This document shows, piece after piece, positions 33,133-54,544 of a stretch of DNA of 64,000 nucleotides; the stretch's first letter is position 1, and each line of letters starts with the position of its first letter. Location: NCBI GenBank assembly GCA_965216875.1, contig OZ244207.1, forward strand, positions 3,488,001-3,552,000, in the 5' to 3' direction. The translations under genes and the position numbers were made by a program. Under the pieces are notes generated by a model. It was not told the origin of the DNA, did no database searches, and was given only the letters and a program-made list of their open reading frames with translations. The stretch comes from Rubripirellula sp. Its GTDB lineage: Bacteria; Planctomycetota; Planctomycetia; Pirellulales; Pirellulaceae.

Positions 33133-33870
33133 TCAGTTGTGTGATTGGCCGACAGCGACGGGTGGTTCAACTACTTGAAAGCCCTCGGGCACTTTCATTT
33201 CAAATCGATCTTCATTGAATTCGACCCCGTACTCGATGTCTTTGTAGACGCGTCCAAGGCTTTTTCCCGGCATGAATCTCGTTGGTGTCTTGCTCAGATC
33301 CGAGAGGCGAGTCCTGAACTCTGGATCCGAAATTGGCACCGAAAGCCCAACAAGATCTTTGGATTCGCTGTCGAACCATAGATCGACGTGCGTCGACTCG
33401 AAAACATCCGCCTTCCCACGACTGGTTTCTCGCTGCCCCGTGGCCTTCGTTGGCATGTCCTTGATAAAGTTTGCCATCCACTTGAGCATGCTTACGTCGC
33501 CATAGACGTGTATCGGATGCTCGAGCCAGGTCGCTGTCTTCGACTTCATGTCCAAATACAGCTGTTTCTTTCCCTTGTTGTCAACGATGTGCACCGACTT
33601 TACTTTCCCTTGTTCATCCAGAGCCGTGTGTCGCCAAAAACTCGGAGTACGATGCTCCACGTGATCGACGTGACCGACATCCATTGAATCGTCGTCGGCT
33701 TTTTGGAAAGACATCAGCGTGTACTTGAGAGTTTTCGAATCCTCGATGGCTTGACGAGTTCCCAGGTAGGCAATGTCATGTTTCGCTGGTTCTTCTTGGG
33801 CGTTTGAGACGTCGGAACAAAGAGCAATCGCCAGCAGAGACAACAAGCTGATCATTCGATGCGTCGCCAT
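33133..33870 (-). CDS. Cassette gene: secreted LolA-like-fold hypothetical protein
   Basis: Signal peptide from MATHRM; C-terminal FEMKVPEGF. Confidence 0.65.
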   Translation of the reverse strand: MATHRMISLLSLLAIALCSDVSNAQEEPAKHDIAYLGTRQAIEDSKTLKYTLMSFQKADDDSMDVGHVDHVEHRTPSFWRHTALDEQGKVKSVHIVDNKGKKQLYLDMKSKTATWLEHPIHVYGDVSMLKWMANFIKDMPTKATGQRETSRGKADVFESTHVDLWFDSESKDLVGLSVPISDPEFRTRLSDLSKTPTRFMPGKSLGRVYKDIEYGVEFNEDRFEMKVPEGFQVVEPPVAVGQSHN

Positions 33871-33911
33871 AAGAGACTCGACTTGAGGATGGTCAAAACC
33901 ACGATTTGCTT

Positions 33912-33975
33912 CCAGAACGCCGAACATCACTGGGCCAGGAAGGTTGAGTGTCCGGCACACATCGCTTGCTCGACG
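33912..33975 (-). repeat. Half attC (degenerate)
   Basis: GAACGCCGAACATCACTGGGCC matches one arm of the family; the other arm is missing. Confidence 0.45.
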
Positions 33976-33980
33976 CCTGC

Positions 33981-34487
33981 CTACTGGAAGATTGGGTAGT
34001 CAGGGAACTCAAAATACCGAGGCACATCAGGTTTTTGAGCGTCATTGTGCTTCACAGCAACGACCGAGTCGAACCTTTCGATAGAGTCAACGTGCAAATA
34101 GATCGTGGGGCGAGCTTGACGATGTATCGAGGGTGCAAGGAGGGCTCCCGCTTGGCCCCGAACAGTCACGCGTTTCCCCTCAAAGTGCTGACGAATATCG
34201 GCAATACCAACCCGTTTTAGCGAGGCGACCACGGAAGGGACAAGCAAGACTCGAAAGCGAGCGTCCTCGGCCGCATCAAGCCAACAGTCGGGTTGCCCTG
34301 ACAGCGAGGACAATGTGACCTGACTGACTGTGAAACAAACAGCTTGTTGACTTGTGTCCAACGACTCTGCGTTTCCCTCGCACCACTGCGTCGGATTCAT
34401 GGCCCGACTTGGCGAATCAGCCTTTGAACGATGCAAAGGATGCGAGACGAGGGATGCGAGAAGCAGCGAAAAAGCGATTCGATTCAT
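33981..34487 (-). CDS. Cassette gene: secreted OB-fold-like protein
   Basis: HFEGKRVTVRG; N-terminal signal-like sequence. Confidence 0.55.
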   Translation of the reverse strand: MNRIAFSLLLASLVSHPLHRSKADSPSRAMNPTQWCEGNAESLDTSQQAVCFTVSQVTLSSLSGQPDCWLDAAEDARFRVLLVPSVVASLKRVGIADIRQHFEGKRVTVRGQAGALLAPSIHRQARPTIYLHVDSIERFDSVVAVKHNDAQKPDVPRYFEFPDYPIFQ

Positions 34488-34747
34488 GGCAGATCCCGCC
34501 GGTTAGGTTTTACAGATGCAGAGCAGTTCAATTCACACTCGACGGCCTGACAACTTATCTCCGATGACGGCTACGTTTGAGCTCGTTGGAACACCAATCC
34601 AAACGTCATCAGGCACGTTAACGTCAACGTCACCAGCAAGGTCAATAGGTACTGTCGCCGACGCGAGACGGCGCCTCCATCGTACCGGTTTGCCGATACA
34701 ACGCCGAGAGCGAACCCACTCGATCCCAGGCAGCAACGTCGATCTCT

Positions 34748-35323
34748 TCATCGCGTGCCGATTTCAGGATCAGGCTTTGCATAATAGAACAGGAAGTAAG
34801 ACGATTCGCCCTCGGAAATGACAGCTAGCTTGGACGAACTGCTACCGGAGTCATCGTTCGCTCGCGTGTCGATCGCCAGCATGGATTCGACGTTCTGGTC
34901 TGAATATCGATAGTGGTCTCCATCGGTGAGTGGTTCAAACGAGTGGTTGGTGATGTGCGATTCGCCGGCCCTGAGTGTGCCAAGATTGACTTCTAAGAAT
35001 CGCTTCTTAAGCCCGTCGTCAATGTCACCGCGAAATACAGCCATTTGTTCCATCGCAGTGATGTCCCCACCATCAAACGCCAGTTGATATGCCTTGGCGA
35101 GGTTTTCTTTGCTCGTGGCGGGGAGCATTGTGCGGGCCTCTTCAACGACAATCTTGCGTTTCGCAGCCTGCTCGGCATCACTCTTGGCGTTGACGCGAGC
35201 CCACATTGCATCGCGTTTGGACTGGAATGAATCTTCGGCGGATTTTTGATCGCAACCGAGAGCTAGCAGGAAAAGGGCAACGATAGAAGCGAGTGCTGGA
35301 AGCTGAGTGATTCGTGATTTCAT
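34748..35323 (-). CDS. Cassette gene: lipoprotein
   Basis: Lipobox LALGC after a hydrophobic stretch. Confidence 0.7.
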   Translation of the reverse strand: MKSRITQLPALASIVALFLLALGCDQKSAEDSFQSKRDAMWARVNAKSDAEQAAKRKIVVEEARTMLPATSKENLAKAYQLAFDGGDITAMEQMAVFRGDIDDGLKKRFLEVNLGTLRAGESHITNHSFEPLTDGDHYRYSDQNVESMLAIDTRANDDSGSSSSKLAVISEGESSYFLFYYAKPDPEIGTR

Positions 35324-35364
35324 GAGGCAAGCGAAACTCAAGTTGGATTGCTCAGAATGAGGCC

Positions 35365-35454
35365 AGGTAACGATGCTAGGCATCGGGCGTGCGTGGTGGA
35401 TTGTTGATCAACAAAGAGCGAAACCGTGTACTCCGGCCTACGCGATGGTCAGTG
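35365..35454 (-). repeat. attC (moderately degenerate)
   Basis: GTAAC..TAGGC....GCCTA.GCGATGGTCAG, 90 bp; overlaps the stop of the upstream ORF. Confidence 0.65.
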
Positions 35455-36027
35455 TTCTTCGACGCTCGAAGAATCTGCCACCAAGTATACGATCTCGATG
35501 AGGTACGAACCGACACCGAAGACCAACAGATGCGAGAGCCCGATCAATACAACAGAAGCCTGCGTCGGAATGGCGAATTGAACGATGGCCGCACAAAGAC
35601 CGCAGAAGCACGACAGGAATGCGATGATCACTACGAAGAACGTCACTAACTGCGATCGTGCATGAGGAAGCTGCTTGAGGTAATTGCGCGACCCCACATA
35701 TGCGAGCTGAGCAGTTGCGAGAAGGTAGAAAGATGCGCCCACTAGTAGCAACGCCCAAAAGCTGGGGAGTCCCGTGCTGTAGGCGACAACAGACGCGACA
35801 AACAACGTTGCCGATAGTGCGACATAGAGGCGAGCGTAGAATCGGAATCCCCGTGCCAGTATCAATCTCGCTTCCAGTTCACTCGAATCAGCGGACACGG
35901 GCTTGCCATGCAGCGCCAGAATCAAACGCCACCAGAGCGAGTACGCACCTGTATCACGAAATGCATCTCGGACTTGAGGAGGACTTCGGACTATCTCAGC
36001 GAATTTCATTATTCCAAACACCCTCAC
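35449..36027 (-). CDS. Cassette gene: membrane protein
   Basis: 4 TM segments. Confidence 0.65.
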   Translation of the reverse strand: MRVFGIMKFAEIVRSPPQVRDAFRDTGAYSLWWRLILALHGKPVSADSSELEARLILARGFRFYARLYVALSATLFVASVVAYSTGLPSFWALLLVGASFYLLATAQLAYVGSRNYLKQLPHARSQLVTFFVVIIAFLSCFCGLCAAIVQFAIPTQASVVLIGLSHLLVFGVGSYLIEIVYLVADSSSVEEH

Positions 36028-36069
36028 GGATTACGTGGACGCCACAAGCGAAAGTCCCTGACAGGTCAG

Positions 36070-36156
36070 TTGTACTGGGAGCGTAGGGGTCCATCATTTA
36101 GCATTCATTGTCGAGGTAAGAAGACTCGCGTCCTTCGCTGCAAGTCGTTGTTACCG
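36070..36156 (-). repeat. attC (degenerate)
   Basis: Arm CCTTCGCTGCAAGTCGTTGTTACC retained; the other arm is eroded. Confidence 0.45.
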
Positions 36157-36182
36157 GCATTCTTCGTTGCATCAAGTAGCAA

Positions 36183-37085
36183 TCACTCAAGTGCGTTCGC
36201 AAAAGTACTCTTCAACCGCCGGTTAATGATTCGCAGGGGAATTCCGTACGATACATTTTGACGCTCGGCGAGGGCAAGCAAGTCGTTGAACGTCACACGA
36301 ATGCTCCCGTCATCCGCCTCCCAGATCAACAGTTTTTGGCAAAAGGCATCAAGACCCAGTGTTGGTGCATTCGCCATTGCCTTGCCGCCTGGACCAGGAC
36401 CACCAAATAGAATCATTCGCGATGGTCGAGTGACGGAAACATGCTCTTTCGACCGTTCGGCGAAATCAATCGTGCCAAAGATCACGGTATCGCCCTGTGC
36501 GTTGATCGCCGATGTAACGCGCTGCAATGTTTCGTCGAAGTTGTACGGACTCTCAAGCGTGACAAGTCCTGAATCGGGCATTGCATCGGAACGAAATTCA
36601 GCGATCTCCTCAGCTGGAACGCCTTTCATCGCCAATGCGATCGAATCGCTATATCGTGATCGAAGAGCTTCATCGTCTGGCAATGAATGGCGTCTCGACA
36701 AGAATTCGTAGCGATTGGCGAGAACTCGGGCACTGCCGGACTCTTGGTCCTCGTACACCAGAACCCTAAACGGAAGGTCGATTGCCGCGATCGGATTCTT
36801 CTCGATGATGGCGGCGTCAAAGGACGGATCGGAAAAGATCAAGACATGCGAAGGAGGCATCGGTGATCTTGCTTCGGCCCCGAGTCGAGAATGATCAATG
36901 TCTACGATCACATCCAGTTCGCTACGACTGCGGACGTTGGCTTGGACGACACCGAAAATGCGGTCCGTTTCGAGATAACGTTCGGCCGAAACGGCTTCCG
37001 ATTTGCGCAAAACAAGCCACAGCGTCGTCGCGATGAACACGGCCAGCACAATGACAATCAGATTGCGCAGTGCTTTGCGACTCAT
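36183..37085 (-). CDS. Cassette gene: tandem DUF302-like protein
   Basis: Two IDH/IDF..LIF..P repeats; AIDLPFRVLVYED. Confidence 0.75.
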   Translation of the reverse strand: MSRKALRNLIVIVLAVFIATTLWLVLRKSEAVSAERYLETDRIFGVVQANVRSRSELDVIVDIDHSRLGAEARSPMPPSHVLIFSDPSFDAAIIEKNPIAAIDLPFRVLVYEDQESGSARVLANRYEFLSRRHSLPDDEALRSRYSDSIALAMKGVPAEEIAEFRSDAMPDSGLVTLESPYNFDETLQRVTSAINAQGDTVIFGTIDFAERSKEHVSVTRPSRMILFGGPGPGGKAMANAPTLGLDAFCQKLLIWEADDGSIRVTFNDLLALAERQNVSYGIPLRIINRRLKSTFANALE

Positions 37086-37086
37086 T

Positions 37087-37124
37087 GTTCCTTGCTCACG
37101 TAAATGGTTCCTTGCTCACGTAAA
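37087..37124 (+). repeat. 18 bp direct duplication
   Basis: GTTCCTTGCTCACGTAAA twice, duplicating the RBS region of the DUF302-like gene. Confidence 0.8.
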
Positions 37125-37135
37125 GCCCTCAAAGA

Positions 37136-37226
37136 GACAAACGGCGGCGTTGACTGAGGACCGTCAATGCGGCAGCCATCTGGCTGAACGCGACACGCCG
37201 TCCTTCGATCGATGTCATGGTTCGCT
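37136..37226 (-). repeat. attC
   Basis: AAACGGCGGCGTTGACTGAGGACC...GTCCTTCGATCGATGTCATGGTTCG. Confidence 0.7.
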
Positions 37227-37271
37227 GGTGGTAGCGGTGCGTCTAGCTCTAAGTGTCATGCATCCGGCTGC

Positions 37272-37380
37272 CACTCTCCCTTGGGCCCTTGGGAGAGTCG
37301 GGCTCTCAGGCCCGGAGAGGGGCACCGCGAATGGCCCTCCCCGGGCTTTAGGCCCGACCCTCCCACAAGTGAGAGGGTAA
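37272..37380. repeat. Composite palindromic repeat, copy 2 (inside the array)
   Basis: Reverse complement of 3572-3680. Confidence 0.8.
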
Positions 37381-37784
37381 TTCCTGTTGAAACAATGTGT
37401 GACATTTAGAGCGAGATCAAGCAGTAGCAGACCGAAGCACCGATTGCTTCGCAACGTTCATCAACCCTATCGAACGCATCGTCGCGCGCCAAATCCGACC
37501 GCGCACTCGAATCCGAAGAGCACGTGTTTCGCTCGTTTCGAGTATTTCGCGATTGCCCAACTGTCACCACATCGATTTGTGTTGTGCGGAATGAATGGAA
37601 CCGCGAAAGATGCGAAATTGGCGAAAAAGCTGCTTTGATGGGCGGCTTAAGACGGGAGCGACCAGGTTTTCCATCACCGTCAACGGAGGACGCTGGCAAA
37701 CGAGCATCGCGATTAATTCCGAGCGCATCATCAGTGTCGATTAGCGTGAATCAGTGTTCCGTTCGCGCGCATCGCAAGGAACAC

Positions 37785-37872
37785 TGATCGACGACGTCAC
37801 CGAGGACCGCCAATTTGGTTGCCGGTCGTAAGCGCGCCCCGCGCGGCGCTTCGGCGCACGACATTGTCACCT
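37785..37872 (-). repeat. attC (degenerate)
   Basis: GTCACCGAGGACCGCCAAT...TTCGGCGCACGACATTGTCAC; overlaps the ORF stop. Confidence 0.6.
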
Positions 37873-38712
37873 GTGCTTTGAAGCGTGGATTGACTCCGCC
37901 ACAGCCGAAACGGCGCAAACAACAACATCTTTGTCACAGCCATAGAGACTCGCGAAACTAAAACCGCCTACCTCGAGCAAACGATATTCGCTGTCGGCAG
38001 TTCGGCAAACATCAACTACCCAGACCGGGTCGGGTTGATAACCTGCGGTCGCAACAGACCGGGCAAATTCCAGTGCAGCCGGATCCTCAGACGGTAGCGC
38101 AACCTCTTCTCCATCATCGACATACTTGGAGCCAGTGACGACCTCGCCATTTGCAACGACATATCGCCACTCCGCGACGATCCGCTTGGGAGAGCTAACG
38201 ACGACCAACGAATCGGTGGGAAATTCGTAGAACCCCATGTACTCGAAGTCCTTGTCGAAAGTCTCGCGAGATATCGTCAATCCAGTAAAGATCTTCAGCG
38301 GTGAATCCGGGCGCACGAACAGCTGGCCGTCTGAACCGAGCGCGTCAAAAAGGAAGCCACGGCAACGTGGAAGTTCGGCGTCTGGCAACATGATGCAGTC
38401 GCGATTCAATAGAAACCGACCAAAGTGTTCGTAGTAGTGCGAGCAGAAGAAACGGGGCACGGTCGCGAACGCCCCCGGCGTCCAGAGGTTGTCATTCCTA
38501 ACACGTGAAACCAAGTCGATGTCAGCGTGTGCGACGACACAGGCGCCTCGGGGAAACGCTTTGCGATACGAAGAACGAACGTCGTCCCATTCGTAAGGAG
38601 GGTTAGGTCGATTAACCGAAGCGACCTCGTGCCCGTTGCGTGTAACAGCTGCGGCAAGTTCGTCATGGTACGAATCAAAGACACCCGCATCGATAAGCCA
38701 GCCAACCATCAT
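37867..38712 (-). CDS. Cassette gene: ATP-grasp protein (DUF4343/R2K-like)
   Basis: FVRPDSPLKIFTG, EWRYVV..G.VV.GS.Y, VVDVC, LLEV..FS.ASLY. Confidence 0.8.
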   Translation of the reverse strand: MMVGWLIDAGVFDSYHDELAAAVTRNGHEVASVNRPNPPYEWDDVRSSYRKAFPRGACVVAHADIDLVSRVRNDNLWTPGAFATVPRFFCSHYYEHFGRFLLNRDCIMLPDAELPRCRGFLFDALGSDGQLFVRPDSPLKIFTGLTISRETFDKDFEYMGFYEFPTDSLVVVSSPKRIVAEWRYVVANGEVVTGSKYVDDGEEVALPSEDPAALEFARSVATAGYQPDPVWVVDVCRTADSEYRLLEVGGFSFASLYGCDKDVVVCAVSAVAESIHASKHR

Positions 38713-38724
38713 TCAATCTTCATC

Positions 38725-38920
38725 GAGTAACGACCGCGATCACCGGGCCGCGGCAATCGACCTGCCTAGGCGAAAGACACCAATAGCAATCGCGAGCAAG
38801 AGCCAACGTCGAGCAGTCCGCCGAGAGTGACCACTTGTCATCAGATTTGACGACGTGATGAGGACATTTGCTCGTTTGCCGAAGCGCCCGGCAGCCCTTC
38901 GGAGAATGTCATGGTTCGCT
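38725..38920 (-). repeat. Two partial attC remnants
   Basis: GTAACGACCGCGATCACCGGGCCG (one arm) and TTCGGAGAATGTCATGGTTCG (other arm). Confidence 0.55.
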
Positions 38921-39073
38921 GATAGAGAGAAGCAACCGTCGCCCCCAAACGTGCGACAGCATCGAAAAACAAATCGATCGCCTCCATCAGTGTCGAATAG
39001 CGTCGATCAGTGTTCCGACAGCGCTCATTACATCAAGACGGTGTGTGCTTCGCGTCAATTGCAACCTCCTTAA

Positions 39074-39205
39074 TCGTAACCTTTCGAATCACGGGGTCGC
39101 CACGAGCAATCCTCGACTTCAACAACCACGATTCGCCAATCGTCAACCGGCCATTTGCATTCAGTACATCGCGGGGTACGCAATCATTCATCCGACGGTG
39201 GTTGT
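39074..39205 (-). repeat. Fused attC remnant
   Basis: GTAACCTTTCGAATCACGGGGTCGCCACGAGCAATCCTCGACTTCAA closely resembles the attC at 45912. Confidence 0.65.
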
Positions 39206-39213
39206 GTTTGTGG

Positions 39214-39420
39214 TTAGATGCCCGACAGGAAATCGATCAGCGACTCAACGGGCGATTGCCCGGGTGCCCAAGTCCACCCGAAGTGTATCCGGACTGCGCG
39301 GATGCCGGCCGGAAGTAGAATGAAAAATGCAATCAGAAGAAGCCAGAACCAGCGTCGCTTGCGCCCTCGATCTCTGCCGGGCGTGTCGCTCGTTTCGTTG
39401 TGTGCCGTTAGTTTCGACAT
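39214..39420 (-). CDS. Cassette gene: small membrane protein
   Basis: MSKLTAH...RKRRWFWLLLIAFFILL; ATG about 10 nt from an ATAAC core. Confidence 0.5.
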   Translation of the reverse strand: MSKLTAHNETSDTPGRDRGRKRRWFWLLLIAFFILLPAGIRAVRIHFGWTWAPGQSPVESLIDFLSGI

Positions 39421-39484
39421 GAGTGTACCAATAACGCGTGCAGTCACATCAAAATCGCAGCCTGCGGAACGTTCCAGCCCGACA

Positions 39485-39572
39485 AATCGTAACAATCACC
39501 CGGCCGCGGCGTGCGACCCAATCACAGAGTAGCCTCGACTCCGTGTGTTCGTGTGCATCGGTAGTTTCGCCG
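39485..39572 (-). repeat. attC (degenerate)
   Basis: AATCACCCGGCCG...GTGTGCATCGGTAGTTTCG. Confidence 0.55.
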
Positions 39573-39676
39573 CTCTGTTCCGAAGGGCCGTCGACCATCG
39601 CCGATGACAGTTCCTTGCTTGTTTCGCCGGCGGGAAACTCGGCCGCTGCGAAAAAGGCGACCACCGCCGCTCCCTA

Positions 39677-40135
39677 TCACCGCTGTTTCGGCCCATCGCC
39701 GCGTTCCGATGGTAGTGTGGTTGGGACCGACGCCCCAAAAGCCTCGTTCCATACCGAACGAATGAAAGGAGTAATCATGAAGTACTCCTCGGCGTTGGAG
39801 GCGTCGAAGCAGCACCAGCGGTACAGCAAGTGGGCAAGTGTATCAGAATCGATAATCAGGATGCGGCGGAGCTGCTCGAGTGTAGCGTCACCAACCGAGC
39901 CGAGTGCGAGGCCCTCGTCCACCGAGCCAATGGTTATCGCAGCCAATGCAAAACGGAAGTTGGAGTCCGGATCGTTGACGTCGTACCCAGCGATAAAGTC
40001 GTTGGCGCGAGCAGGGTCGGCGAGAATGTGCTCCCAGTCCTGATCATGCACACCGTAGGGAAGATCGAATTGACGTTCAACGCGACGGCACGCATCGGGA
40101 ACGGTAAAGCGATCCGAAGGCTCACGAATGGTCAT
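39677..40135 (-). CDS. Cassette gene: hypothetical protein (immunity-like)
   Basis: QDWEHILADP.R...F...Y; acidic alpha-helical protein. Confidence 0.65.
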   Translation of the reverse strand: MTIREPSDRFTVPDACRRVERQFDLPYGVHDQDWEHILADPARANDFIAGYDVNDPDSNFRFALAAITIGSVDEGLALGSVGDATLEQLRRILIIDSDTLAHLLYRWCCFDASNAEEYFMITPFIRSVWNEAFGASVPTTLPSERGDGPKQR

Positions 40136-40205
40136 GAAGTAGCAAGCATGTCAGTCGAGTAACAGAATCATCCCTCTCCGCTTGATTCAATCTGCGCAAT
40201 TACGT

Positions 40206-40439: not shown

Positions 40440-40508
40440 CGAGATATTAAAGATCCTTCTCCCGTTTCCAGGCAAAGGGAGGTTGTCCTCTTGTGCTCCA
40501 CTTCTGTC

Positions 40509-40597
40509 GGGTAACGACCGCGATGACCGAGTCTCAGAATTGTGGTGTCCCAGTAAAAAGTCCCTACCCGCGACTTCGGTCCATCGCTTGGTTCTGC
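40509..40597 (-). repeat. attC
   Basis: GGGTAAC GACCGC GATGACCGAGTC...GACTTCGGTCCATC GCTTG GTTCTGC, 89 bp. Confidence 0.88.
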
Positions 40598-47151: not shown

Positions 47152-47793
47152 CGCGTTCGCAAAAAGTTCGTTCACAACGGAGAGCTGTTTGGGTTGAGGA
47201 GCGAGCTGACGATTCCCATCAAAAAAGGGTTCCAATATCCAATGCTCAGGTCCAATGTATCCAATTTGAGACCAAGCCTCAAAAAAACTATTCAATGGCA
47301 TGTTGAACGTGAACGAATCCGCGTCGTGCGATAGGTAATTCACCGAGGCAGTCTCTAAGTCCAGCCCAAGATAGTCACCATTGCGAAGCGCCATGAATGG
47401 AAGGGTGTTAAGCCAAAACGCCTGATCTTGCCGAAATTCATCATCATTGAGCCATGATGATACCGCGAAGTTTCGGCATTGCTTCAAGTTACCTGTTAGT
47501 AAATCGACATCAATCACGACACCGCCATGAATAAAGTCTCCGAGTCCGATTTGGCCCGCAACTTCAACCAATGGTTCTGGCAGTTCCCATCCGTAGTTGA
47601 AGGAAAGTGCGGCAGTCTTTGTGAGAAGTTCTTTTAAGCCCGTCGGAATTTCAAAACCTAGATCAGTTTCAACTGAGGCTAGGCGTTCCATGGTAGCAGC
47701 AGGGGATTGGCGGAGTGCGAGAGAGTCAAACTCGCCGGGAAGTTCGCCAAGTTTGCCGTGGAATGCTTCGATGTTGTCGGGGATTGGTTTCAT
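47146..47793 (-). CDS. Cassette gene: SMI1/KNR4 (SUKH) family protein
   Basis: PAAT.E.L..VE..LGFEIP..LKE; F....NGDYLGLD; V.YLSHD. Confidence 0.85.
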   Translation of the reverse strand: MKPIPDNIEAFHGKLGELPGEFDSLALRQSPAATMERLASVETDLGFEIPTGLKELLTKTAALSFNYGWELPEPLVEVAGQIGLGDFIHGGVVIDVDLLTGNLKQCRNFAVSSWLNDDEFRQDQAFWLNTLPFMALRNGDYLGLDLETASVNYLSHDADSFTFNMPLNSFFEAWSQIGYIGPEHWILEPFFDGNRQLAPQPKQLSVVNELFANAG

Positions 47794-47798
47794 GAGCG

Positions 47799-47887
47799 GG
47801 ATAACGGCGGCGTTGACCGGGCGACGCCATGGTGGTGTCCATTTCAATCCGTCTCATGCATCGCTCCGGTCCAACACATGGTTCCCT
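47799..47887 (-). repeat. attC
   Basis: GGATAAC..GTTGACCGGGCGA...TCGCTCCGGTCCAAC..GTTCCCT, 89 bp. Confidence 0.88.
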
Positions 47888-48082
47888 GCTACATCGACCG
47901 TGCCAGCATCGCTCAGATAGTAAATCGGGTGACAAGCTTGCGGTGTAATCCGTAGATGAGCTCATGAAGCACAAGGGGCGATTACATAGCGCAAAGATCC
48001 TCAGCACACAGTCAACAAGGAAACGCCAATAACTCGGGGAACGGAGGACATCACGGGGGACGATGAGTTTGGCCTTCATTCT

Positions 48083-48126
48083 AGCAAACGCCGGGAGGCC
48101 TCCTCCCGCGCATGTCATGGTTCAGC
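48083..48126 (-). repeat. Internally deleted mini-attC
   Basis: AAACGCCGGGAGGCCTCCTCCCGCGCATGTCATGGTTCAG, about 44 bp. Confidence 0.55.
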
Positions 48127-48792
48127 CTCGGTGTTAACGATTGCATTCAGTTTGCCTTGATACTCTGCGGCCAGAGCATCATCCCCCTTTTTGTTGGCAA
48201 TCAGGATGCCCGCCTCGTATGCGCTGGGATCGTTGGGAAATCCGGTGAGTAGTTTCTGCACGTCCGACTCTGCGTCCGCAATTCTGTCCAGTTTCACCAT
48301 CGCCTCCACGCGAAATCGCAGATTCTGTGCATGAACAGAAGTGTCCGCACAAGCGTCATTTGCCGCATCGAGATACGGGATCGCGTCCTGGTACTTTTTC
48401 AAGAGCACAGCATCTCGGCCCAATGCATGGTTCGCACCACAGTGTTTTGGATCAACCGCTAAGGCTTCACGATAGTGGACGTCCGCCTGTTCCAATTCTC
48501 GCTGTTTCCAGTAGCAATCGCCCAAAGAAGCGTAATTGGTCGCCGTTGGAGATCGATCAACCAACTGCTGAAACAGTTTTACTGCTTCGTCATACTGCTC
48601 GGCGTCGAGACGCTCCTCAGCCAATTCAAGTAGTTGGCCCGCGCTAAGTTCAGCGACAACATCGAGAGACGCAGTTTCTCCCGGTGCAACGCCGTTGGCA
48701 GTACGACTTGAATCGCCACTACAGCCACAGCAGAGGGATAGGGTGGCGATCAAACAGACTTCGGATATGCGTGTGCGTCGAGCAGGATGCAT
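48115..48792 (-). CDS. Cassette gene: TPR lipoprotein
   Basis: Lipobox CCGC; multiple TPR repeats. Confidence 0.85.
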   Translation of the reverse strand: MHPARRTRISEVCLIATLSLCCGCSGDSSRTANGVAPGETASLDVVAELSAGQLLELAEERLDAEQYDEAVKLFQQLVDRSPTATNYASLGDCYWKQRELEQADVHYREALAVDPKHCGANHALGRDAVLLKKYQDAIPYLDAANDACADTSVHAQNLRFRVEAMVKLDRIADAESDVQKLLTGFPNDPSAYEAGILIANKKGDDALAAEYQGKLNAIVNTEAEP

Positions 48793-48827
48793 GATGCTGT
48801 CCTAAAAGTGTTGACAAAGTTTCTTTG

Positions 48828-48918
48828 GCCGAACGACCCGAGTCACCGGGCCCCGTAAGGTGAGCATCCATTCGTGAAAACGATCCCACGGGCCTCCGTG
48901 TACACGCGATGGTTATGC
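48828..48918 (-). repeat. attC
   Basis: GCCGAAC..GTCACCGGGCCCCGT..CATCCATT..ACGGGCCTCCGTG..GTTATGC; sister of the site at 51036. Confidence 0.85.
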
Positions 48919-48926
48919 CTCAGTCT

Positions 48927-49184
48927 TCATCCTTGCGTTGTCAGGTAACAGTGCGACAAATTCGCCCCAGTTCTTACACAACACGTTCGCGTGATCGCTA
49001 ACGTAGGGAAACGCAGATGCCCATATCGCGCCCGATTCAACCGTTTCGCTTCGGTGAGAAACACACCACAGGAGTCGATGATCGTTTTAATGGCGGCCAA
49101 ACGCTCTCCAGCAATGATGAGAGCGTCTATCTCATCTCGCTGCGATTGCATGAGCGCATCAAATTCAGGTGTCGTGCTTGACAT
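48927..49184 (-). CDS. Cassette gene: small hypothetical protein (possibly truncated)
   Basis: EIDALIIAGERLAAIKTI....GV.LTEAK, resembling ribosomal L7/L12 C-terminal-like helices. Confidence 0.5.
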   Translation of the reverse strand: MSSTTPEFDALMQSQRDEIDALIIAGERLAAIKTIIDSCGVFLTEAKRLNRARYGHLRFPTLAITRTCCVRTGANLSHCYLTTQG

Positions 49185-49248
49185 AGCGTGATCGAGTTAT
49201 AACCCATTCGAGAATCTCGAAAGGCGAGTTAATAGGATCGTAGTAGTC

Positions 49249-49442
49249 GCAGAACGGCAATGTTTACCGGGTCCGAGCGGAAAGGCAACCATTACCCAAC
49301 AGCAACTCGAGACTCCGGTACGTCACATGGTCATACCGCCATTCAGTGGTGGGATAACCTTCCGCATCAGCGGGCGGCGGGAGTCGAGTCACCGTTTATT
49401 CAAACGTCTCCACTGCCATTCCGTTGCATGCGATGGTCCGCC
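49249..49442 (-). repeat. Two tandem attC (49249-49336 and 49352-49442)
   Basis: Both have AAC...GT(T/C) ends and L boxes; only about 15 bp apart. Confidence 0.8.
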
Positions 49443-49850
49443 GCGATTTCTGCGTCTAGGGTTGCATTCGGTTCAACACCGGCTGACCGAAGCCCTGACT
49501 TCCATGCAGCGTGCACCAAGTAGAGCATTGCGATTTGCGGGGCCCAGCAACAGGCAGTCCCAGGCACAACAGCGAACGCTGACCTTGGAGAGTCGAAAAT
49601 AGCCGAAACTGAATACGCGATGCATATCATGCCGGCCAAAACAACAACAGCTATGCGGTATCGGATTAGACGCGTGCGGCCGTAACGAGAAAGCCCGAAA
49701 GCAATCGCAGGTCCGAAAAAATAGGTGAATGCAAGTGTTATTAAAGTCCCGGGCAATCCAAGCATTCGGGCAAACGCGAGAACGCATGCCAGAACCGTAG
49801 TGGCAACGATCAGGTGCCAAATACGGAATTGGGTCGGTTCAAGGCGTACG
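49400..49850 (-). CDS. Cassette gene: membrane protein
   Basis: Frame is open upstream of the listed ATG (QFRIWHLIVATTVLAC...); 4 TM segments; start uncertain. Confidence 0.6.
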
Positions 49851-49870
49851 TTCAGTTGGCTACTCCAGTC

Positions 49871-49962
49871 GGCGAACGACCGCGATAACCGAGTCGCGGG
49901 AGTTGATTGTCCATTGCGAAGTCGCCCGACTACCGCGACTTCGGTTCATCGCTTGGTTCGCC
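49871..49962 (-). repeat. attC
   Basis: GGCGAAC..GATAACCGAGTCGCGG...CCGCGACTTCGGTTCATC..GTTCGCC, 92 bp. Confidence 0.92.
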
Positions 49963-50496
49963 GCGATTTTCAAAATAGGTGCGAGTGACGTAGTCCGATT
50001 CTCGATAGTCAACATGGCACTCGATGCACGATCCGATTTTACCAGACGCGAATACCCGCCTCGATGTGCCATCGACAATCGAGTATTCCCAGTCGCCATG
50101 CTCGCGATCGTATCCAGTCGGCATTTTTCGCATCACGGTATAAATTTCAATCTTTGGTTTGTCCTTGTCAGGTAGCTTTGCTTTTACGATTAGCGAGTCG
50201 ACAGGATATACGCCACTTCCACTGATCATTGTTTTCTTTGCAGTTTCGTTGACGTAGACGTTGCAATATGCGGTCCGGATGAAACCTTCGTGCAAATTGT
50301 GAGGAAGTTCGATTGGCGGGCGGCAAAGAGCGGCCGTTGAATCAAACATTGGATGCGGCTCTTCGGTGACAAGGTGCAACGATTTCAGATTCGTAATGAC
50401 TGAAACGAGTGCAGAATCATGGGTGCTGTTCTCTGCGGCCAATGCATGGATCGCTGCGATGAAAAGCAAACCAGTAAAGATGAGTAGGTATCTCAT
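49930..50496 (-). CDS. Cassette gene: cytochrome P460-family c-type cytochrome
   Basis: Signal peptide; YPVDSLIVK, VMRK...GDWEY, C-terminal CIECH. Confidence 0.78.
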   Translation of the reverse strand: MRYLLIFTGLLFIAAIHALAAENSTHDSALVSVITNLKSLHLVTEEPHPMFDSTAALCRPPIELPHNLHEGFIRTAYCNVYVNETAKKTMISGSGVYPVDSLIVKAKLPDKDKPKIEIYTVMRKMPTGYDREHGDWEYSIVDGTSRRVFASGKIGSCIECHVDYRESDYVTRTYFENRGEPSDEPKSR

Positions 50497-50512
50497 TGGA
50501 TCTTTCCCCGTC

Positions 50513-50602
50513 GGCGAACGACTGGGATAACCGGGCCGCCGAGGTTGATGCTCCATTTGAAAACGCGATGTCGGCGGCTACGTGTGCATGCCTTGGTTAT
50601 CT
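50513..50602 (-). repeat. attC
   Basis: GGCGAAC...GCCGCCGA...TCGGCGGC...GTTATCT, 90 bp. Confidence 0.85.
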
Positions 50603-50655
50603 GGCCTCAGTGCGATCGAAACGAACTGAAGCCGACGTCCAAGCTGGGCAACCAA

Positions 50656-50943
50656 TTACTCGGTTGTTGACGTTGGGCCGTGCGATCCGCCATCAACGAA
50701 CATGTGTGTTGATTGCCAATAGTATCGACAGTCCTTGTCTTCGTTCAAACTGTTCAACCTCATGACTTCGTTTTGAGCCTCCCTAGCATCGAAAACGATT
50801 TCTTTGACCTTTACGTTTGCGGGACCCGGTGCAGGCAATGTCTCGCCATCAATTGTGTATTCGTCAACGTGGCCTTCATTTCCCCAGTTGTCGACGCGAA
50901 TGACCGCATAGCCCTGTTTGTAGGTTGGTTGTTGTTCTGACAT
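50656..50943 (-). CDS. Cassette gene: hypothetical protein
   Basis: YAVIRVD...VKEIV.....A..EV.RLN.LN.DK...YYWQ.T. Confidence 0.65.
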   Translation of the reverse strand: MSEQQPTYKQGYAVIRVDNWGNEGHVDEYTIDGETLPAPGPANVKVKEIVFDAREAQNEVMRLNSLNEDKDCRYYWQSTHMFVDGGSHGPTSTTE

Positions 50944-51035
50944 AAGAGCAAGGCGATTTGCGGCAGCGCGGCAAGGGAATCGTAGGCCGCCAAATCGCAT
51001 CTGCGTTGCGTAAACGGAGAATTGAAACCTGGGCC

Positions 51036-51126
51036 AAATAGCGTCACGCGTCACCGGGGCCCGTGAGTTGAGCATCCATTGGAGAAAACCAACCAACGGG
51101 CCTCCGCGTGCACGCGATGGTTACCC
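51036..51126 (-). repeat. attC
   Basis: CGCGTCACCGGGGCCCGT...ACGGGCCTCCGCGTGCACGCG..GTTACCC. Confidence 0.82.
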
Positions 51127-51585
51127 CTTCGGTTTTTTGCGGTGCACGCCAATTTTCTCATGTATTTGATTGGGGTCTTCACCAGTCTGAATGTAATCAT
51201 AAATCAACTTGTCTGGATCGCCGGCGTAACTCCATGTGCGACCGCTGGTCAGACGGACGTAGTCCAAAGGTACGTCTGAGTCTTGAATTTCAGCAATGGT
51301 GACCTCCCAGTCGACGATGATAAACGATTGCAGCTGCTCGAATGTCCAAGCGTAGTGTTCGGGAACGGCGAGACGATCATATTCGTCACGCAGATCGTGC
51401 CATCCAGTTGGCCATTCACCCGAAGTGCGTATGTGATCAATGATGAATATTGCAGTCCAGTCTGAAGCGTATGCTTCACGCGGGTTAGGAAGCACTTGCT
51501 TGACGAACGACAACGCTTTTGCAATTCCGAATGCGGCAATCGCACATGTAGTCAACGCCACGACAGTAATCAAGACGGGTCGCAT
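51121..51585 (-). CDS. Cassette gene: membrane-anchored hypothetical protein
   Basis: N-terminal TM; GEWPTGWHDL; stop inside the attC core. Confidence 0.72.
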   Translation of the reverse strand: MRPVLITVVALTTCAIAAFGIAKALSFVKQVLPNPREAYASDWTAIFIIDHIRTSGEWPTGWHDLRDEYDRLAVPEHYAWTFEQLQSFIIVDWEVTIAEIQDSDVPLDYVRLTSGRTWSYAGDPDKLIYDYIQTGEDPNQIHEKIGVHRKKPKG

Positions 51586-51613
51586 GGAATGTCAGCTCGG
51601 GTGCTCCTAGTTG

Positions 51614-51703
51614 GGGTAACGGCCGCCATCACCGAGCCCGGCCAATGTGGTTTCGATTTGTAATCGCCCCATGCCTTGCTCCGGTGCATGACATGGTTAT
51701 CCG
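51614..51703 (-). repeat. attC
   Basis: GGGTAAC..CATCACCG...CCGGTGCATG..GTTATCC, 90 bp. Confidence 0.88.
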
Positions 51704-51705
51704 CG

Positions 51706-52269
51706 TCATGATTCGAGTATGCGTTCAAGTTCTTCTCTGCGGTCAAGCAACGGAAGAACGCGTTTGCGAAAGTAACGCAAAGTGCGATCATCCAGCTTAA
51801 ACGATCCGCGCAGCATATTACATAACGTCTCGGAATGCTCGTTAATGTACGAAAGCGCGGCCTGGCCATGATCTTTCCGTTGCTCACGATGAAGCCGGAT
51901 TGCGACGTTCAACACGCCTGGACAACATGTGTAGGATCGAGGGAATGCCAATCCACACTTCTCGCACCAATTTACGCCGGCGGGTAAGTATGCGACGCAG
52001 AATACGCCGAGCGCCTCATCACTCGGAATGCTCGGAACAATGTCGTGGAATTCGTGACCAACGCGATCGGAACTGTGGCGAAACAATTCCGTCCCGCATT
52101 GGGAACAACGACCGCCGTTAGAAGTGTACTCGGCAGATTGGAACGATCCGCCACAGACCGAACAGATCGAGCAGACAGGGTAAAGCGCTTCGTACTCGCG
52201 ACGCTCGTCGAGTGTGGCTGTCCCGTCCAAGAGTCTGGTCGCGAGTTGAGTGGCCCGTTCAGTCGGCAT
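51706..52269 (-). CDS. Cassette gene: Cys-rich zinc-finger protein
   Basis: CSVC, CSQC, CEKC, CCP motifs. Confidence 0.68.
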   Translation of the reverse strand: MPTERATQLATRLLDGTATLDERREYEALYPVCSICSVCGGSFQSAEYTSNGGRCSQCGTELFRHSSDRVGHEFHDIVPSIPSDEALGVFCVAYLPAGVNWCEKCGLAFPRSYTCCPGVLNVAIRLHREQRKDHGQAALSYINEHSETLCNMLRGSFKLDDRTLRYFRKRVLPLLDRREELERILES

Positions 52270-52280
52270 CTATCTTGTTC

Positions 52281-52370
52281 GCATAACGTCACAAATCACA
52301 CGGCGGCGACGAAAATCGTGATTTCAAAACAGACTCGGCTTCGCCGCTCGTGTGCATTCGATGGTTATCC
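52281..52370 (-). repeat. attC
   Basis: Minus strand: GGATAAC-5-AATGCACAC...GTGTGATT-6-GTTATGC, 90 bp. Confidence 0.92.
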
Positions 52371-52760
52371 GTCTTTGTCCGAGTTGATGCACGTCTGTTC
52401 CTGCGGTCGACCGAAGCGCACACCAAAAACCACAGTAACAACGCCGAGAGGAATAGCCAATCCGAATAATGGTGAGAGGGCTGGGATCGAAACCCCAAGC
52501 CCAAGCGCGGCACAAAGATGTGCACTAGGACTGCGAAACAATTGTACCGAGCCGATGATGGTAGCTGCACTCAGTAGGACGCCGGCGAGATGTACGAATA
52601 GTCCAATTGCGTGGGCTCCTTGAGTCGAGACAATTTCGATGTTGCGGAGGGCGACAGCGAAGCCAGCCGTGTTTCGAGAGTAAACGACCCAGAAGCCGCC
52701 AAGATGAGCCAACAGACCAAGCACGGCAGTCATCAAAATCGCAACGGAAATAATCCTCAT
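52365..52760 (-). CDS. Cassette gene: membrane protein
   Basis: 3-4 TM segments; stop inside the attC core. Confidence 0.65.
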   Translation of the reverse strand: MRIISVAILMTAVLGLLAHLGGFWVVYSRNTAGFAVALRNIEIVSTQGAHAIGLFVHLAGVLLSAATIIGSVQLFRSPSAHLCAALGLGVSIPALSPLFGLAIPLGVVTVVFGVRFGRPQEQTCINSDKDG

Positions 52761-52856
52761 GACGATCAGGCGGTAAGTGGAATCGAGCGTACTATTCTGA
52801 CCATGTCACGAACGGAGCTTGGAAAACGATGAGCCGTTCAATACTCACGCGCGAAC

Positions 52857-52946
52857 GGATAACGACTAGGATCAGCGGTGACCGGGAGTTCAGCATCCAT
52901 TCGTGAAAGCTGGCCACCGGTCCTCAGGTGCATCCGAGGGTTATCC
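52857..52946 (-). repeat. attC
   Basis: GGATAAC..GGATCA..GACCGG...CCGGTC..TGCATCC..GTTATCC, 90 bp. Confidence 0.88.
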
Positions 52947-53540
52947 AATATGCCCAACGCACTCCTCGAACAAATTGCAATACTCAGGGATCAGCGAGAC
53001 AGTTCGATCGTTCCATTCTTCAGCAAAGCTCGCCGTGAAAGTATGCCAAAGACTGTCGTCTTCAAACTTTTTGTAATACGCGGGACGCCAGTACTCAACG
53101 GGCGATGCCTCGACGAATAGTGATTGCGTCACTGCAAAACGGAAAAAGTCAAATCGAAAGGAGGCAGTACTGCGAGCCGCAACGCTCGGAGTGTAAAAAT
53201 CGTATCGAATGACGCCCAGGATCTCGGGTTCCGAATCATGAAGATGACGTTGTTGCTCGATTGCACTCTTCAAATCGGGGTTTGCATCCAGCACTTGTGG
53301 CGGGCGGATGGACAACTTCGTCGTTGCGAAGTGACCGTCGCCATGCCACTGTAGTTTTTTGCCGAACCCCAATGCGAATCTCTCGACTTCGGAAACGACC
53401 TGGGAGTCAATCGGGTATTCCAACCTGTCCCATATTCGACGCACGCAAGCAACCGCGAAAAGGCGTAGCGGGTTATCGGGAACTGTCCCATGTACCGCAT
53501 CGAGCAGTTGTCCAAGCGGAGAAGACGAAATGGGAAGCAT
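52941..53540 (-). CDS. Cassette gene: hypothetical protein (LRLFAVAC.RR.W type)
   Basis: 199 aa; stop inside the attC core. Confidence 0.68.
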   Translation of the reverse strand: MLPISSSPLGQLLDAVHGTVPDNPLRLFAVACVRRIWDRLEYPIDSQVVSEVERFALGFGKKLQWHGDGHFATTKLSIRPPQVLDANPDLKSAIEQQRHLHDSEPEILGVIRYDFYTPSVAARSTASFRFDFFRFAVTQSLFVEASPVEYWRPAYYKKFEDDSLWHTFTASFAEEWNDRTVSLIPEYCNLFEECVGHIG

Positions 53541-53596
53541 GTGAGTACTCTTGTTTACCGCAAACCCAGATTTCAGCGACGAGCACGACTCTCATC

Positions 53597-53688
53597 GGAT
53601 AACGGCCCGGCATCACGGGGCACGAAGAGTTGACTATCCATTGGGAATAACGACGCAAGCCGTGCTCCCGTGCATGTCATTGTTCTGC
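53597..53688 (-). repeat. attC (head-proximal)
   Basis: GGATAAC..GCATCACGGGGCACG...CGTGCTCCCGTGCATG..GTTCTGC, 92 bp. Confidence 0.92.
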
Positions 53689-54168
53689 TCGTTCTTCTGA
53701 CCGGATGAGCTTCGCAAGTCGGTCAATCGTAGATCGAGACGAAAATGTGGCCAGGAAATCGTCTAAGAGCGTCGGGGCAACGTCCGCGTCAATTGTAGTG
53801 TAGTCGCCATCCGAAATTTGAATCAATTTCTGGGAGGCGGGCAGCTCGACAATGCGATCCTTCAGTTCGATCGTTGCAGAGGATTCGTAGTCACTGCCGG
53901 ACGAGGTGACAGTGAAAAGAGACGTCAGTTCCCGTCGTACAGAAAGTCGTTCTATGACAACAAAGTCAACGGTGTCCAAGGTTGGGTCATGCTTGTGCCG
54001 CCTAATCCCGGTGTGAATCATTGCAATCCCGTTTGCATCGCTTGTGGATCGCGTAGTGATGTCTCGCGGGTGGAACGGTTGATACGGATTGTTTGCGATG
54101 TAGATCGCAGCAACTGCGGTCAACATTAGCAGTGAAGCAATCGAGAACCGGAACCGATGCAATTTCAT
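53677..54168 (-). CDS. First cassette gene: membrane-anchored hypothetical protein
   Basis: RFRFSIASLLMLT leader; ATG 5 nt from the boundary core. Confidence 0.72.
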   Translation of the reverse strand: MKLHRFRFSIASLLMLTAVAAIYIANNPYQPFHPRDITTRSTSDANGIAMIHTGIRRHKHDPTLDTVDFVVIERLSVRRELTSLFTVTSSGSDYESSATIELKDRIVELPASQKLIQISDGDYTTIDADVAPTLLDDFLATFSSRSTIDRLAKLIRSEERAEQ

Positions 54169-54173
54169 TGCGT

Positions 54174-54343
54174 AGCAGAATTTATCTATTAGCTGTTGAA
54201 CGGGTGAGAATACGGCGTGCTGGCTGTTCTCACTGGGTGGACCTTCGGTACGGTCGGTGACACGCGCCTTGATCCTCGTATTCTCACTTGTCGCTCCAGT
54301 ATTCTCACCGGTTAGGTGGCAACCACTCTGGGGGCATTCTCAC
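54174..54343 (-). promoter_or_regulatory. Putative attI region with five (GT)ATTCTCAC motifs
   Basis: Boundary core AGCAGAAT at 54174-54181; motif at 54204 (inverted), 54226, 54278, 54299 and 54334. Confidence 0.55.
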
Positions 54344-54364
54344 CGTCGGCCTTTGGGTTGTCAA
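54336..54364 (-). promoter_or_regulatory. Putative cassette promoter Pc
   Basis: TTGACA-17 nt-GAGAAT on the minus strand, pointing into the array. Confidence 0.6.
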
Positions 54365-54544
54365 ATTTTGAATCGCTTCCTGTGAATAGGGGTGTCGCGG
54401 TATCGGAGTCAATCACCGCGAATGGGGCATGTTCTTATGCCGCTTTTTGAGCGAGAGGGACGCAAGGATCGCGACTCAAAATGGGCGAAGATTTGGTTTG
54501 GCAAGCTCGCGAGATGCCACAACAAGGAAGAGTGTCCTGGGGAA

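Follow-up and report, generated by a model that had tools for sequence, protein, structure and literature searches.

The window analysed here is a stretch of 64,000 nucleotides from a Rubripirellula sp. genome, and it carries a long array of gene cassettes on the minus strand. The array and its tail, from head to tail, comprise the following features.

35365..54181, minus strand: cassette array whose units, about 30, run leftwards from attI and pass from intact near the head to decayed towards the tail
53597..53688, minus strand: attC 1, 68 bits, with an R'' complementary at 6/7 positions to the 7 nt that follow attI
52857..52946, minus strand: attC 2, 70 bits
52281..52370, minus strand: attC 3, 72 bits
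51614..51702, minus strand: attC 4, 70 bits
51036..51126, minus strand: attC 5, 81 bits, R' core now GCT
50513..50602, minus strand: attC 6, 72 bits
49871..49962, minus strand: attC 7, 80 bits, zero broken pairs, behind a cassette that weakly matches cytochrome P460
47799..49442, minus strand: attC 8-12 (at 49352, 49249, 48828, 48036 and 47799), 37-71 bits, with two short ORF-less units and a TPR cassette
47146-47847, minus strand: SUKH cassette, middle array
44254..47150, minus strand: middle attC sites, half of them truncated, 16-68 bits
45997-46419, minus strand: DUF2251 cassette, middle array
35365..43768, minus strand: distal attC sites, mostly decayed, with at least 50 bits only at 40509 and 41737; metallophosphoesterase, ATP-grasp R2K and DUF302 ORFs
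about 37235-37427: one inserted REP-like repeat, distal array
33133..35364, minus strand: three co-oriented tail ORFs, probably old cassettes, with zero covariance-model matches

The 31 longest ORFs of 33133-54168 all lay on the minus strand, and no resemblance was detected between the main ORFs of the 32 units, no two being alike, which agrees with the preliminary description of about 30 unrelated minus-strand ORFs. The cassettes are co-oriented, mostly contain a single ORF and are unrelated, a pattern that weakens in the distal third. Their genes are mostly of unknown function: Pfam matches were obtained for 7 of the 31 array ORFs, NCBIfam gave none above its cut-off, and PADLOC gave one weak match (PDC-S10, E 2e-4).

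An in-house attC covariance model, whose training set included 14 of the window sites, located 29 attC sites at 35365-53688, all on the minus strand, with no match over the remaining length of the 64 kb window. The R'', L'', L' and R' boxes, the AAC and GTT cores, the bottom-strand hairpin and the extrahelical bases are features of this site family; the site at 52281-52370, offered earlier as the example of the family, reads exactly as described, with an extra base at position 4 of L''. In an alignment of 14 window sites with 18 sites from the complete integron of the same genome (see below), the bottom strand forms 21 pairs with 95.1% of cells paired, as compared with 29-41% in slid controls, and compensatory changes were found at 16 of the 21 stem pairs. 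None of 500 shuffles reached the observed paired fraction or covariation score. Two columns remain unpaired as extrahelical bases, and the AAC and GTT cores are kept while the stems covary. In addition, when the 7 nt that open a cassette are set against the R'' of the same cassette's attC, 10 of the 12 units nearest the head show complementarity at 6-7 positions and the other two at 5, which reads as the trace of circular integration. The bottom strand of these sites, as inferred from GC skew, is the leading-strand template, the orientation given as the rule for attC sites in the part of PMC11023631 dealing with it.

We considered whether the palindromes might instead be REP-like or terminator repeats within a variable gene cluster of the ordinary kind. 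Palindromic repeats abound in the genome (three repeat queries gave 106-257 BLAST matches), and the folding of a single site is often no stronger than that of its shuffles, with z weaker than -2 in 27 of the 32 window sites, so that the attC assignment is carried by covariation across sites and not by single-site folding. Since a simple box pattern has 905 matches genome-wide, it is unspecific and too loose to serve as evidence. However, the 80 nhmmer matches in the genome at E<0.01 all fall in four strand-uniform clusters, one of them headed by IntI, and this distribution, together with the conserved cores, the two extrahelical bases, the covarying stems and the core-site rule, refutes the repeat explanation, to which we assign a negligible probability. 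Rfam gave zero matches in the window. Two lone attC-like matches elsewhere, at C1:1203000 and C1:3900290, were discarded as they lie inside ordinary genes. Taken together, the data indicate that the array was assembled by IntI-type attC x attI integration, and both the attC architecture and the sedentary cassette array proposed in the preliminary description stand.

The proposed uniformity of the family, with a palindrome between nearly all ORFs, did not hold. Only 16 of the 29 covariance-model matches reach at least 50 bits, and the attC score drops along the array towards its tail (32 nhmmer matches, from 33913; Spearman rho -0.74, p 1e-6). Below 36 kb mere traces are left, one at 35365-35453 with E 0.11 and one at 33913-33979 with E 0.8 in nhmmer, and no attC follows the tail ORF at 33133-33960.

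The head of the array, overlooked in the preliminary description, which had noted no integrase in view, is composed as follows.

54175..54195, minus strand: attI, damaged, CAGCTAATAGATAA-ATTCTGC, where the genome's other three arrays have CAGCTGATAAATAA-GTT
54178..54367, minus strand: platform leader, common to the genome's four arrays, 88-93% alike over 189 columns
54203-12, minus strand: one inverted GTGAGAA box
54337-43, 54302-08, 54281-87 and 54227-33, minus strand: four direct GTGAGAA boxes, resembling the attI L box
54336..54364, minus strand: candidate Pc promoter, TTGACA-17-GAGAAT, matching the consensus at 10/12
54437..54547, plus strand: intI remnant, the first 34 codons (36 aa to the stop), divergent from the array like the intI of the complete integron
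54530..54538, plus strand: deletion junction with 9-nt microhomology, joining intI codons 32-34 to DNA about 45 nt beyond the intI stop
54529..55464, plus strand: copy of the complete integron's DNA downstream of intI, duplicated in part and passing into REP-like palindromes

The remnant is 88% identical over 143 nt to C1:1815004-1815146, and the copy of the intI 3' flank is 84-85% identical over 340 and 510 nt to C1:1816582-1817091, its REP-like part having 257 BLAST matches genome-wide. By these alignments the array adjoins a duplicate of the genome's integron platform in which a deletion at the microhomology removed nearly all of intI, and which retains the promoter candidate, the leader and attI. 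The remnant lies within the N-terminal extension of the integrase, outside TIGR02249, PF13495 and PF00589, and a search for intI pseudogenes by C-terminal domain would therefore miss it. Its codons carry nine non-synonymous changes and one synonymous change in 102 nt, suggesting that this copy of intI became nonfunctional soon after its split from the active gene.

As stated earlier, the window itself contains no tyrosine-recombinase match. The genome search proposed at that stage found a single intact IntI, 1.7 Mb from the window, with about 414 bits to TIGR02249 against a cut-off of 265; by alignment it has the tyrosine-recombinase catalytic motifs and the integron-specific insert, and its best fold match is the V. 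cholerae IntI structure 2a3v (E 2e-23). The protein has 497 aa; its N-terminal extension, about 115 aa long, is helical and common across relatives. Planctomycetota is the commonest taxon of the top Atlas cluster for the N-terminus, which agrees with the planctomycete origin suggested earlier, and the Atlas places the extension among SAM-like domains. An internal duplication or SAM domain in the extension was rejected, as the sequence score was 23 versus 24 +/- 4 in shuffles. A search with the leader returned exactly four copies in the genome, one heading each attC cluster, and clusters of the GTGAGAA motif likewise occur genome-wide only at the four array heads; these boxes are probably accessory IntI sites. 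The four-way conservation starts at the candidate Pc and stops at GTT, and the first cassette follows the core rule at all four arrays, at 7/7 in three and 6/7 in the window. One integrase-less array (array A) and the complete integron have in common a 598-nt cassette, 99.7% identical and exact in its boundaries, which starts at the crossover and occupies position 2 in both, while their leaders are 88% alike. These findings make it very likely, in our view, that the four attI-headed arrays form a dispersed system, in which a single IntI gene serves all of them in trans and cassettes are exchanged. The window array has zero cassettes in common with the other three, and the traffic is therefore demonstrated for its sister array and not for the window array itself.

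An alternative without a platform, namely repeated insertion at an off-target genomic attG site or separation from the main integron by rearrangement, draws on two described routes (10.1101/2022.09.11.507474 and PMC4889954, as far as their accounts of such arrays go). In the relative G002 the flanking genes are separated, with the two flanks 0.5 Mb apart, and the region has thus undergone rearrangement; in none of the three stretches fetched from G001 and G002 does an attC adjoin the orthologues of these genes, so that no empty site can be defined. Against this alternative, the array head carries a 92.6% identical leader copy, an intI stump and the intI 3' flank, and the complete integron retains its own leader and 40 attC matches. 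For the array head it is refuted, and we regard it as highly improbable overall.

The attI of the window has A at 54181 in place of the G of GTT, the crossover being between 54181 and 54180, and three of the six private changes of this leader copy fall within its last 12 columns. Contigs of sequencing run X4 match 34600-54243 without difference, indicating that the variant is no assembly slip, although X4 may be the source sample and thus dependent; low-depth identical fragments in runs X5-X7 were left out, and there is no RNA data set among the runs listed. Joints in the sequence runs, considered as excision products, were rejected since they derive from paralogous attC and leader copies. A first-base mismatch cuts attC x attI1 recombination 1,000-10,000-fold in the experiments of PMC2811028 that bear on this point. 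The effect of the G-to-A change is taken over here from the class 1 integrase IntI1. Lacking the G of GTT, the array is probably closed to new cassettes. We infer that with the loss of this base the array became a decaying store closed to ordinary cassettes, a step we hold to be reasonably likely; broken pairs are more frequent in its head attC sites (16 of 147) than in the complete integron (about 3%, p 0.015). The head cassettes may still be transcribed from the candidate Pc, and the intact attC sites may yet undergo excision and donation.

The main competitor is a plain dead integron, whose own intI built the whole array and was then deleted, with decay since and no service in trans; intI loss is mechanism iii of Cury et al. 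2016 (PMC4889954), in the passage on CALIN origins. The intI remnant with its junction, the damaged attI and the zero common cassettes all fit such a history, the three attI-core changes fit the 10% drift of the remnant, and the window attC scores fall below those of the complete integron (p 0.0003). However, the intI copy appears to have lost function early, and the decay of the head attC sites falls short of what the remnant clock predicts: about 4% per site is implied, as against 10% in the remnant (binomial p 0.0006 against 10%). This clock is weak: the 10/102 changes of the remnant have a 95% interval of 5-17%, a rate of 4% fits the attC data exactly (p 0.6), the model was trained with these attC sites, and selection may act on the stems. 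Furthermore, the sister arrays without any intI have intact attI sites and fresh cassettes. We consider the dead-integron explanation unlikely. It departs from our preferred explanation only in the in-trans steps, and it may hold for the window array. The preferred explanation includes continued cassette gain in trans for some time after intI loss and before the attI lost its G, which we favour by a small margin of confidence; as a whole, the explanation of the window array as a satellite integron, drawn from comparison of sequences, is the best available and a likely one. The preliminary description had left the choice between an orphaned array and one served in trans. An integrase does exist 1.7 Mb away, and the array is no featureless orphan but one of four attI-headed arrays with its own attI, leader and deleted intI.

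Relatives share parts of this layout. In the complete genome of G012, which has zero IntI, all seven fetched array heads have one GTT core after a GGTGAGAA-like box (the GTT core by itself would occur by chance with a probability of 0.01-0.2 per head), and 4/4 array heads of G015 have the same kind of attI. G001 has ten leader copies, four of them adjoined by IntI sequence, and the core rule fails in two of its eight readable copies; no shared leader was found at 3/6 heads of G020 and 3/5 heads of G006. A prediction recorded beforehand for four further complete genomes was borne out in seven of nine integrase-less clusters, which have attI at the head; of the two failing clusters, one has an IS at its head and one is decayed. 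One of the seven passing clusters (L137) was assigned by motif likeness only. The congeners G012 and G122 share four orthologous integrase-less attI loci, where upstream homology of 75-98% stops at GTT and the first cassettes differ. Differing first cassettes at orthologous loci could also arise by excision alone, without capture. The window leader DNA was found in 0 of 40 relatives, and the leaders appear to be species-specific. This shared layout points to a satellite nature, with service from afar, for many 'orphan' arrays.

By the definition of a CALIN, in the part of PMC4889954 that sets it out, the window array belongs to this class, having two or more attC sites and an IntI elsewhere on the replicon but no intact intI close by; what adjoins its attC sites reads as a 34-codon intI stump. 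It is not a complete integron, the intact intI being 1.7 Mb away, and the homologous attI and platform also argue that it is no attG-derived cluster. That definition is made irrespective of attI, whereas the window array retains a leader and attI. The same account lists intI loss in one of several integrons as an origin of CALINs, treats attI as not searchable outside classes 1-3, discusses mobilisation as excision from CALINs, and reports intI pseudogenes, detected by C-terminal domain, beside 15 of 279 CALINs. In Xanthomonas, the portions of 10.1101/2025.06.18.660453 concerned describe intI as often truncated or deleted and CALINs as residing at other, fixed loci and open to mobilisation in trans, as here; unlike the window array, attI or a duplicated platform is not reported for them there. 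The attG insertions and SALINs (Loot et al., 10.1101/2022.09.11.507474, in its treatment of attG) similarly have cassettes far from intI, placed by an integrase in trans, but attG sites are unrelated to attI, whereas the window site is homologous to the cognate attI and comes with the entire leader.

Sedentary chromosomal integrons of the Vibrio superintegron type resemble the present system in the long array, the homogeneous attC family of about 90 bp, the mostly unknown genes, the divergent intI (in the complete copy) and the attC bottom strand lying on the template of the leading strand. The textbook form has one platform per genome, whereas this genome has four platforms and one integrase, a 497-aa IntI with an N-terminal extension. 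Class 2 and truncated class 1 integrons have a broken intI beside a working attI, complemented in trans; they are mobile, with few cassettes and one platform, in contrast to the chromosomal network of paralogous platforms here. A literature search, which covered few subscription papers, found no description of attI-headed integrase-less arrays in planctomycetes. IntegronFinder tables may list arrays of such genomes. What appears to be new is the organisation, that is, satellite attI platforms served in trans; the array class itself, the CALIN, is known.

CALINs occur as often as complete integrons do, and where they come from is an open question because attI is not searchable outside the clinical classes. 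In the window an origin can be read directly, with a platform duplicated and its intI deleted, and the comparative evidence suggests that such arrays still exchange cassettes. The findings also provide a simple rule for locating attI at other CALINs, together with a ready test set for a single integrase, consisting of four naturally occurring attI alleles of which one has an altered crossover base.

Extended to this bacterial family, the findings would be explained if an integrase-less platform, consisting of Pc, a box-rich leader and attI, were a non-autonomous unit copied around the chromosome and still capturing cassettes, with most so-called CALINs being working or retired satellite integrons. 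The attI grammar would be an inverted box, about 10 nt, a GGTGAGAA-like box, 4-6 nt and GTT; the N-terminal helical domain of the long integrases may read the repeated boxes, and the single-base loss of G may be the usual lock of an array. We lean only slightly towards this extended reading as a whole. Under it, one IntI gene would run a genome-wide set of first-position expression sites. Several attI/Pc platforms would allow a cell to keep more than one cassette at a time in first position, where expression is strong, something beyond the reach of a single integron.

Our analysis shows that the window (C1:3488001-3552000 of a one-contig 8.26 Mb genome, G000) holds a cassette array, here called W; the example attC site and the run of short minus-strand ORFs in the preliminary description were found as described. 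A plain box pattern, with 905 matches across the genome, was discarded as evidence for attC. Starting from 8 window sites, an nhmmer search was iterated to convergence and gave 80 matches at E<0.01 in the genome, every one inside one of four clusters, namely W and the following three.

C1:237985-245872, cluster of nhmmer attC matches, array A (integrase-less)
C1:1143162-1147077, cluster of nhmmer attC matches, array B (integrase-less)
C1:1791111-1814307, cluster of nhmmer attC matches, the complete integron INT

A covariance model built here, trained on 14 window and 18 INT sites, gave 29 matches in window 35365-53688, 16 of them with at least 50 bits, and no match in the remainder of the 64-kb window. 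In the alignment of these 14 and 18 sites, the attC bottom strand folds as an attC hairpin with two unpaired columns; paired cells made up 95.1%, 16 of 21 pairs covaried, and the covariation score was equalled by none of 500 shuffles. The sites had been described as a uniform family, but their scores drop along the array from 54 kb toward 34 kb (rho -0.74), and below 36 kb the signs of a tail are no more than suggestive. The first 7 nt of 10 of the 12 head-most units of W complement their own R'' at 6-7 positions (the core rule). Such 5' core/R'' complementarity is what IntI leaves behind when it integrates circular cassettes. Seven of the 31 ORFs of W had a Pfam match (TPR, SUKH, DUF2251, metallophosphoesterase, ATP-grasp R2K, DUF302 and, weakly, P460). 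REP-like palindromic repeats lie at window 54500-55700, 37235-37427 and 33022-33144 (106-257 BLAST matches each in the genome), and one copy has entered the array. The right flank (window 55822-62982: a thioredoxin-domain gene, DUF4254, ilvC, ilvN, scpA and aldehyde dehydrogenase) is also found in the related genome G002, in a different order and without an array.

The lack of an integrase in the window was borne out by the genome search: the single integron integrase lies elsewhere, at C1:1815045-1816538, where it stands at the head of INT and points away from its array, and V. cholerae IntI is the best match of its predicted fold. Its N-terminal extension of about 115 aa (G000:C1:1815045-1815390; L013:12046-12390), modelled as four helices with pLDDT mostly 79-93, is covered by no Pfam or NCBIfam model; it is common to the integrases of at least six relatives, and the Atlas places it among SAM-like integrase domains. 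Two cassettes duplicated within INT (C1:1813182-1813727/1801429-1801971, 95% in DNA; C1:1793985-1794537/1791151-1791703, 97%) are signs of its own shuffling. GC skew places the origin near 6.26 Mb and the terminus near 2.11 Mb; by this measure, INT and B have the excision-prone orientation, their attC bottom strands lying on the lagging-strand template, and W and A have the stable one, as large chromosomal integrons usually do.

The same leader opens all four arrays of the genome, with 88-93% identity across 189 columns. Since its four-way conservation stops at GTT, and the following bases complement R'' of each array's first attC, the end of the leader is attI. The conserved block starts with a consensus match (TTGACA-17-GAGAAT) to a candidate Pc, which may be active, and clusters of GTGAGAA boxes, putative accessory IntI sites, are confined in the genome to the four array heads. 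In W, the leader continues into a stump of intI, its 34 opening codons (88% over 143 nt), and this stump is joined, at a 9-nt microhomology, to sequence lying past the intI stop codon in INT. This fusion of leader and stump to intI 3' sequence shows that W is a duplicated integron platform from which intI has been deleted. The stump carries nine non-synonymous changes and one synonymous change, the pattern of a dead copy. In A and B the stump is gone too, and their upstream regions are 72% alike over 654 nt. No intact integrase is present in W, as noted earlier, but the preliminary choice between an orphaned array and one served in trans missed the leader, attI and stump. Because all three satellites (A, B and W) adjoin a copy of the repeat-rich DNA found after intI, recombination via REP-like repeats may be one route of platform copying, and aberrant IntI excision and reinsertion may be another. 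An ORF-less unit of A (C1:243250-243560) contains the repeat found after intI and before the satellite leaders, and its terminal attC resembles that of ORF-less INT unit 13.

The arrays are probably served in trans as a system, with IntI presumably acting on the satellite attI sites. Service in trans, one of two options in the preliminary description, is probable for the system given a 598-nt cassette common to A and INT, but the evidence for W is indirect. The common cassette is 99.7% identical, at position 2 in each and starting at the crossover, despite a 12% difference between the two leaders; A, without intI, has no decay gradient (rho -0.15). No cassette of W was shared with A, B or INT. 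The attI of W has three private changes in its last 12 columns, one of them G to A at GTT, and no such change occurs in the last 17 columns of the remaining three. For class 1 integrons, recombination is reported to fall 1,000-10,000-fold when one partner has a mismatch at the first base (PMC2811028). Broken or wobble pairs amount to 16 of 147 in seven head attC sites of W versus about 3% in the 20 head-most sites of INT (p 0.015); the implied decay of about 4% per site is below the stump's 10% (interval 5-17%), the head sites having been in the model training set. In our reading, W would have lost intI, continued capture, and then lost attI, so that it is probably now closed to capture, a decaying cassette store. 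In sequencing run X5, under another organism label, a contig matching at window 54178 has an INT-type leader with another cassette in first position (depth about 6, loose end).

IntI matches were found in 66 of the 121 family genomes searched, and the attC model gave several clusters in each of 11 other genomes run, fewest in G023, among the matches listed. G001 (84% complete) has 10 leader copies with a common end point, four of them adjoined by IntI sequence, and six of the eight readable copies keep the core rule. In G012, a complete genome without IntI, attI was found at 7/7 array heads examined (one weak single match left out), where the core 7-mer is single-copy within 150-1200 nt, each time 5 nt after a GGTGAGAA-like box. 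Heads with attI numbered 4/4 in G015, 3/6 in G020 and 2/5 in G006, and G002 has one further array with a truncated intI and its own short leader. The prediction of attI at integrase-less heads was noted after this discovery set (G001, G012, G015, G020, G006, G002) and before a test set (G042, G073, G078, G122) was examined. In the latter, attI was clear at six of nine integrase-less clusters (motif likeness only at one, none at two) and at four of seven single sites (probable at one, none at two), counts that come from kin and are not independent. A large intact integrase-less array of the test set (G078 C1:3921754-3952481) is headed by a 94% leader copy. Four orthologous integrase-less loci of the congeners G012 and G122 are homologous up to GTT and then carry different cassettes (in one example, 97.9% over the 2.5 kb flank and 93.8% over the leader), a difference that excision alone could also cause; at L144, one of these four, the G of GTT is lost, as in W. 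Near-complete G012, G020 and G006 each have 23-46 attC matches in several arrays and no IntI, and the attC sites of G012 are very well preserved, scoring up to 90 bits. Many G001 arrays (L054-L071) contain a family of units of about 320 nt without an obvious long ORF, often first after attI, and copies of an element that codes for another tyrosine recombinase are strewn through the arrays. An 86-kb integron in G042 (C1:229174-314983) has more than 100 attC matches; its intI match has an internal stop, the open frame ending near residue 300.

W is not a complete integron and falls within the definition of a CALIN. Cury et al. list intI loss among CALIN origins, report pseudogenes at 15/279 CALINs, detected with a C-terminal domain, and state that the attI of most integrons is unknown (PMC4889954). 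CALINs are regarded as donors mobilised in trans by Ghaly et al. (PMC9668308, PMC8618304) and in a Xanthomonas preprint (10.1101/2025.06.18.660453), and Loot et al. derive small CALINs from attG insertion (10.1101/2022.09.11.507474); the accessible text of PMC3108266 and 10.64898/2026.03.17.712381 held nothing further on this question. A covariance model for planctomycete attC sites already exists (PMC8352920). In the literature searched, which took in few subscription papers, paralogous satellites headed by attI were not described for this lineage. By itself, W consists of ordinary, known parts, and the novelty is in the organisation: a dispersed layout of one integrase and many attI sites, with comparative signs of activity.
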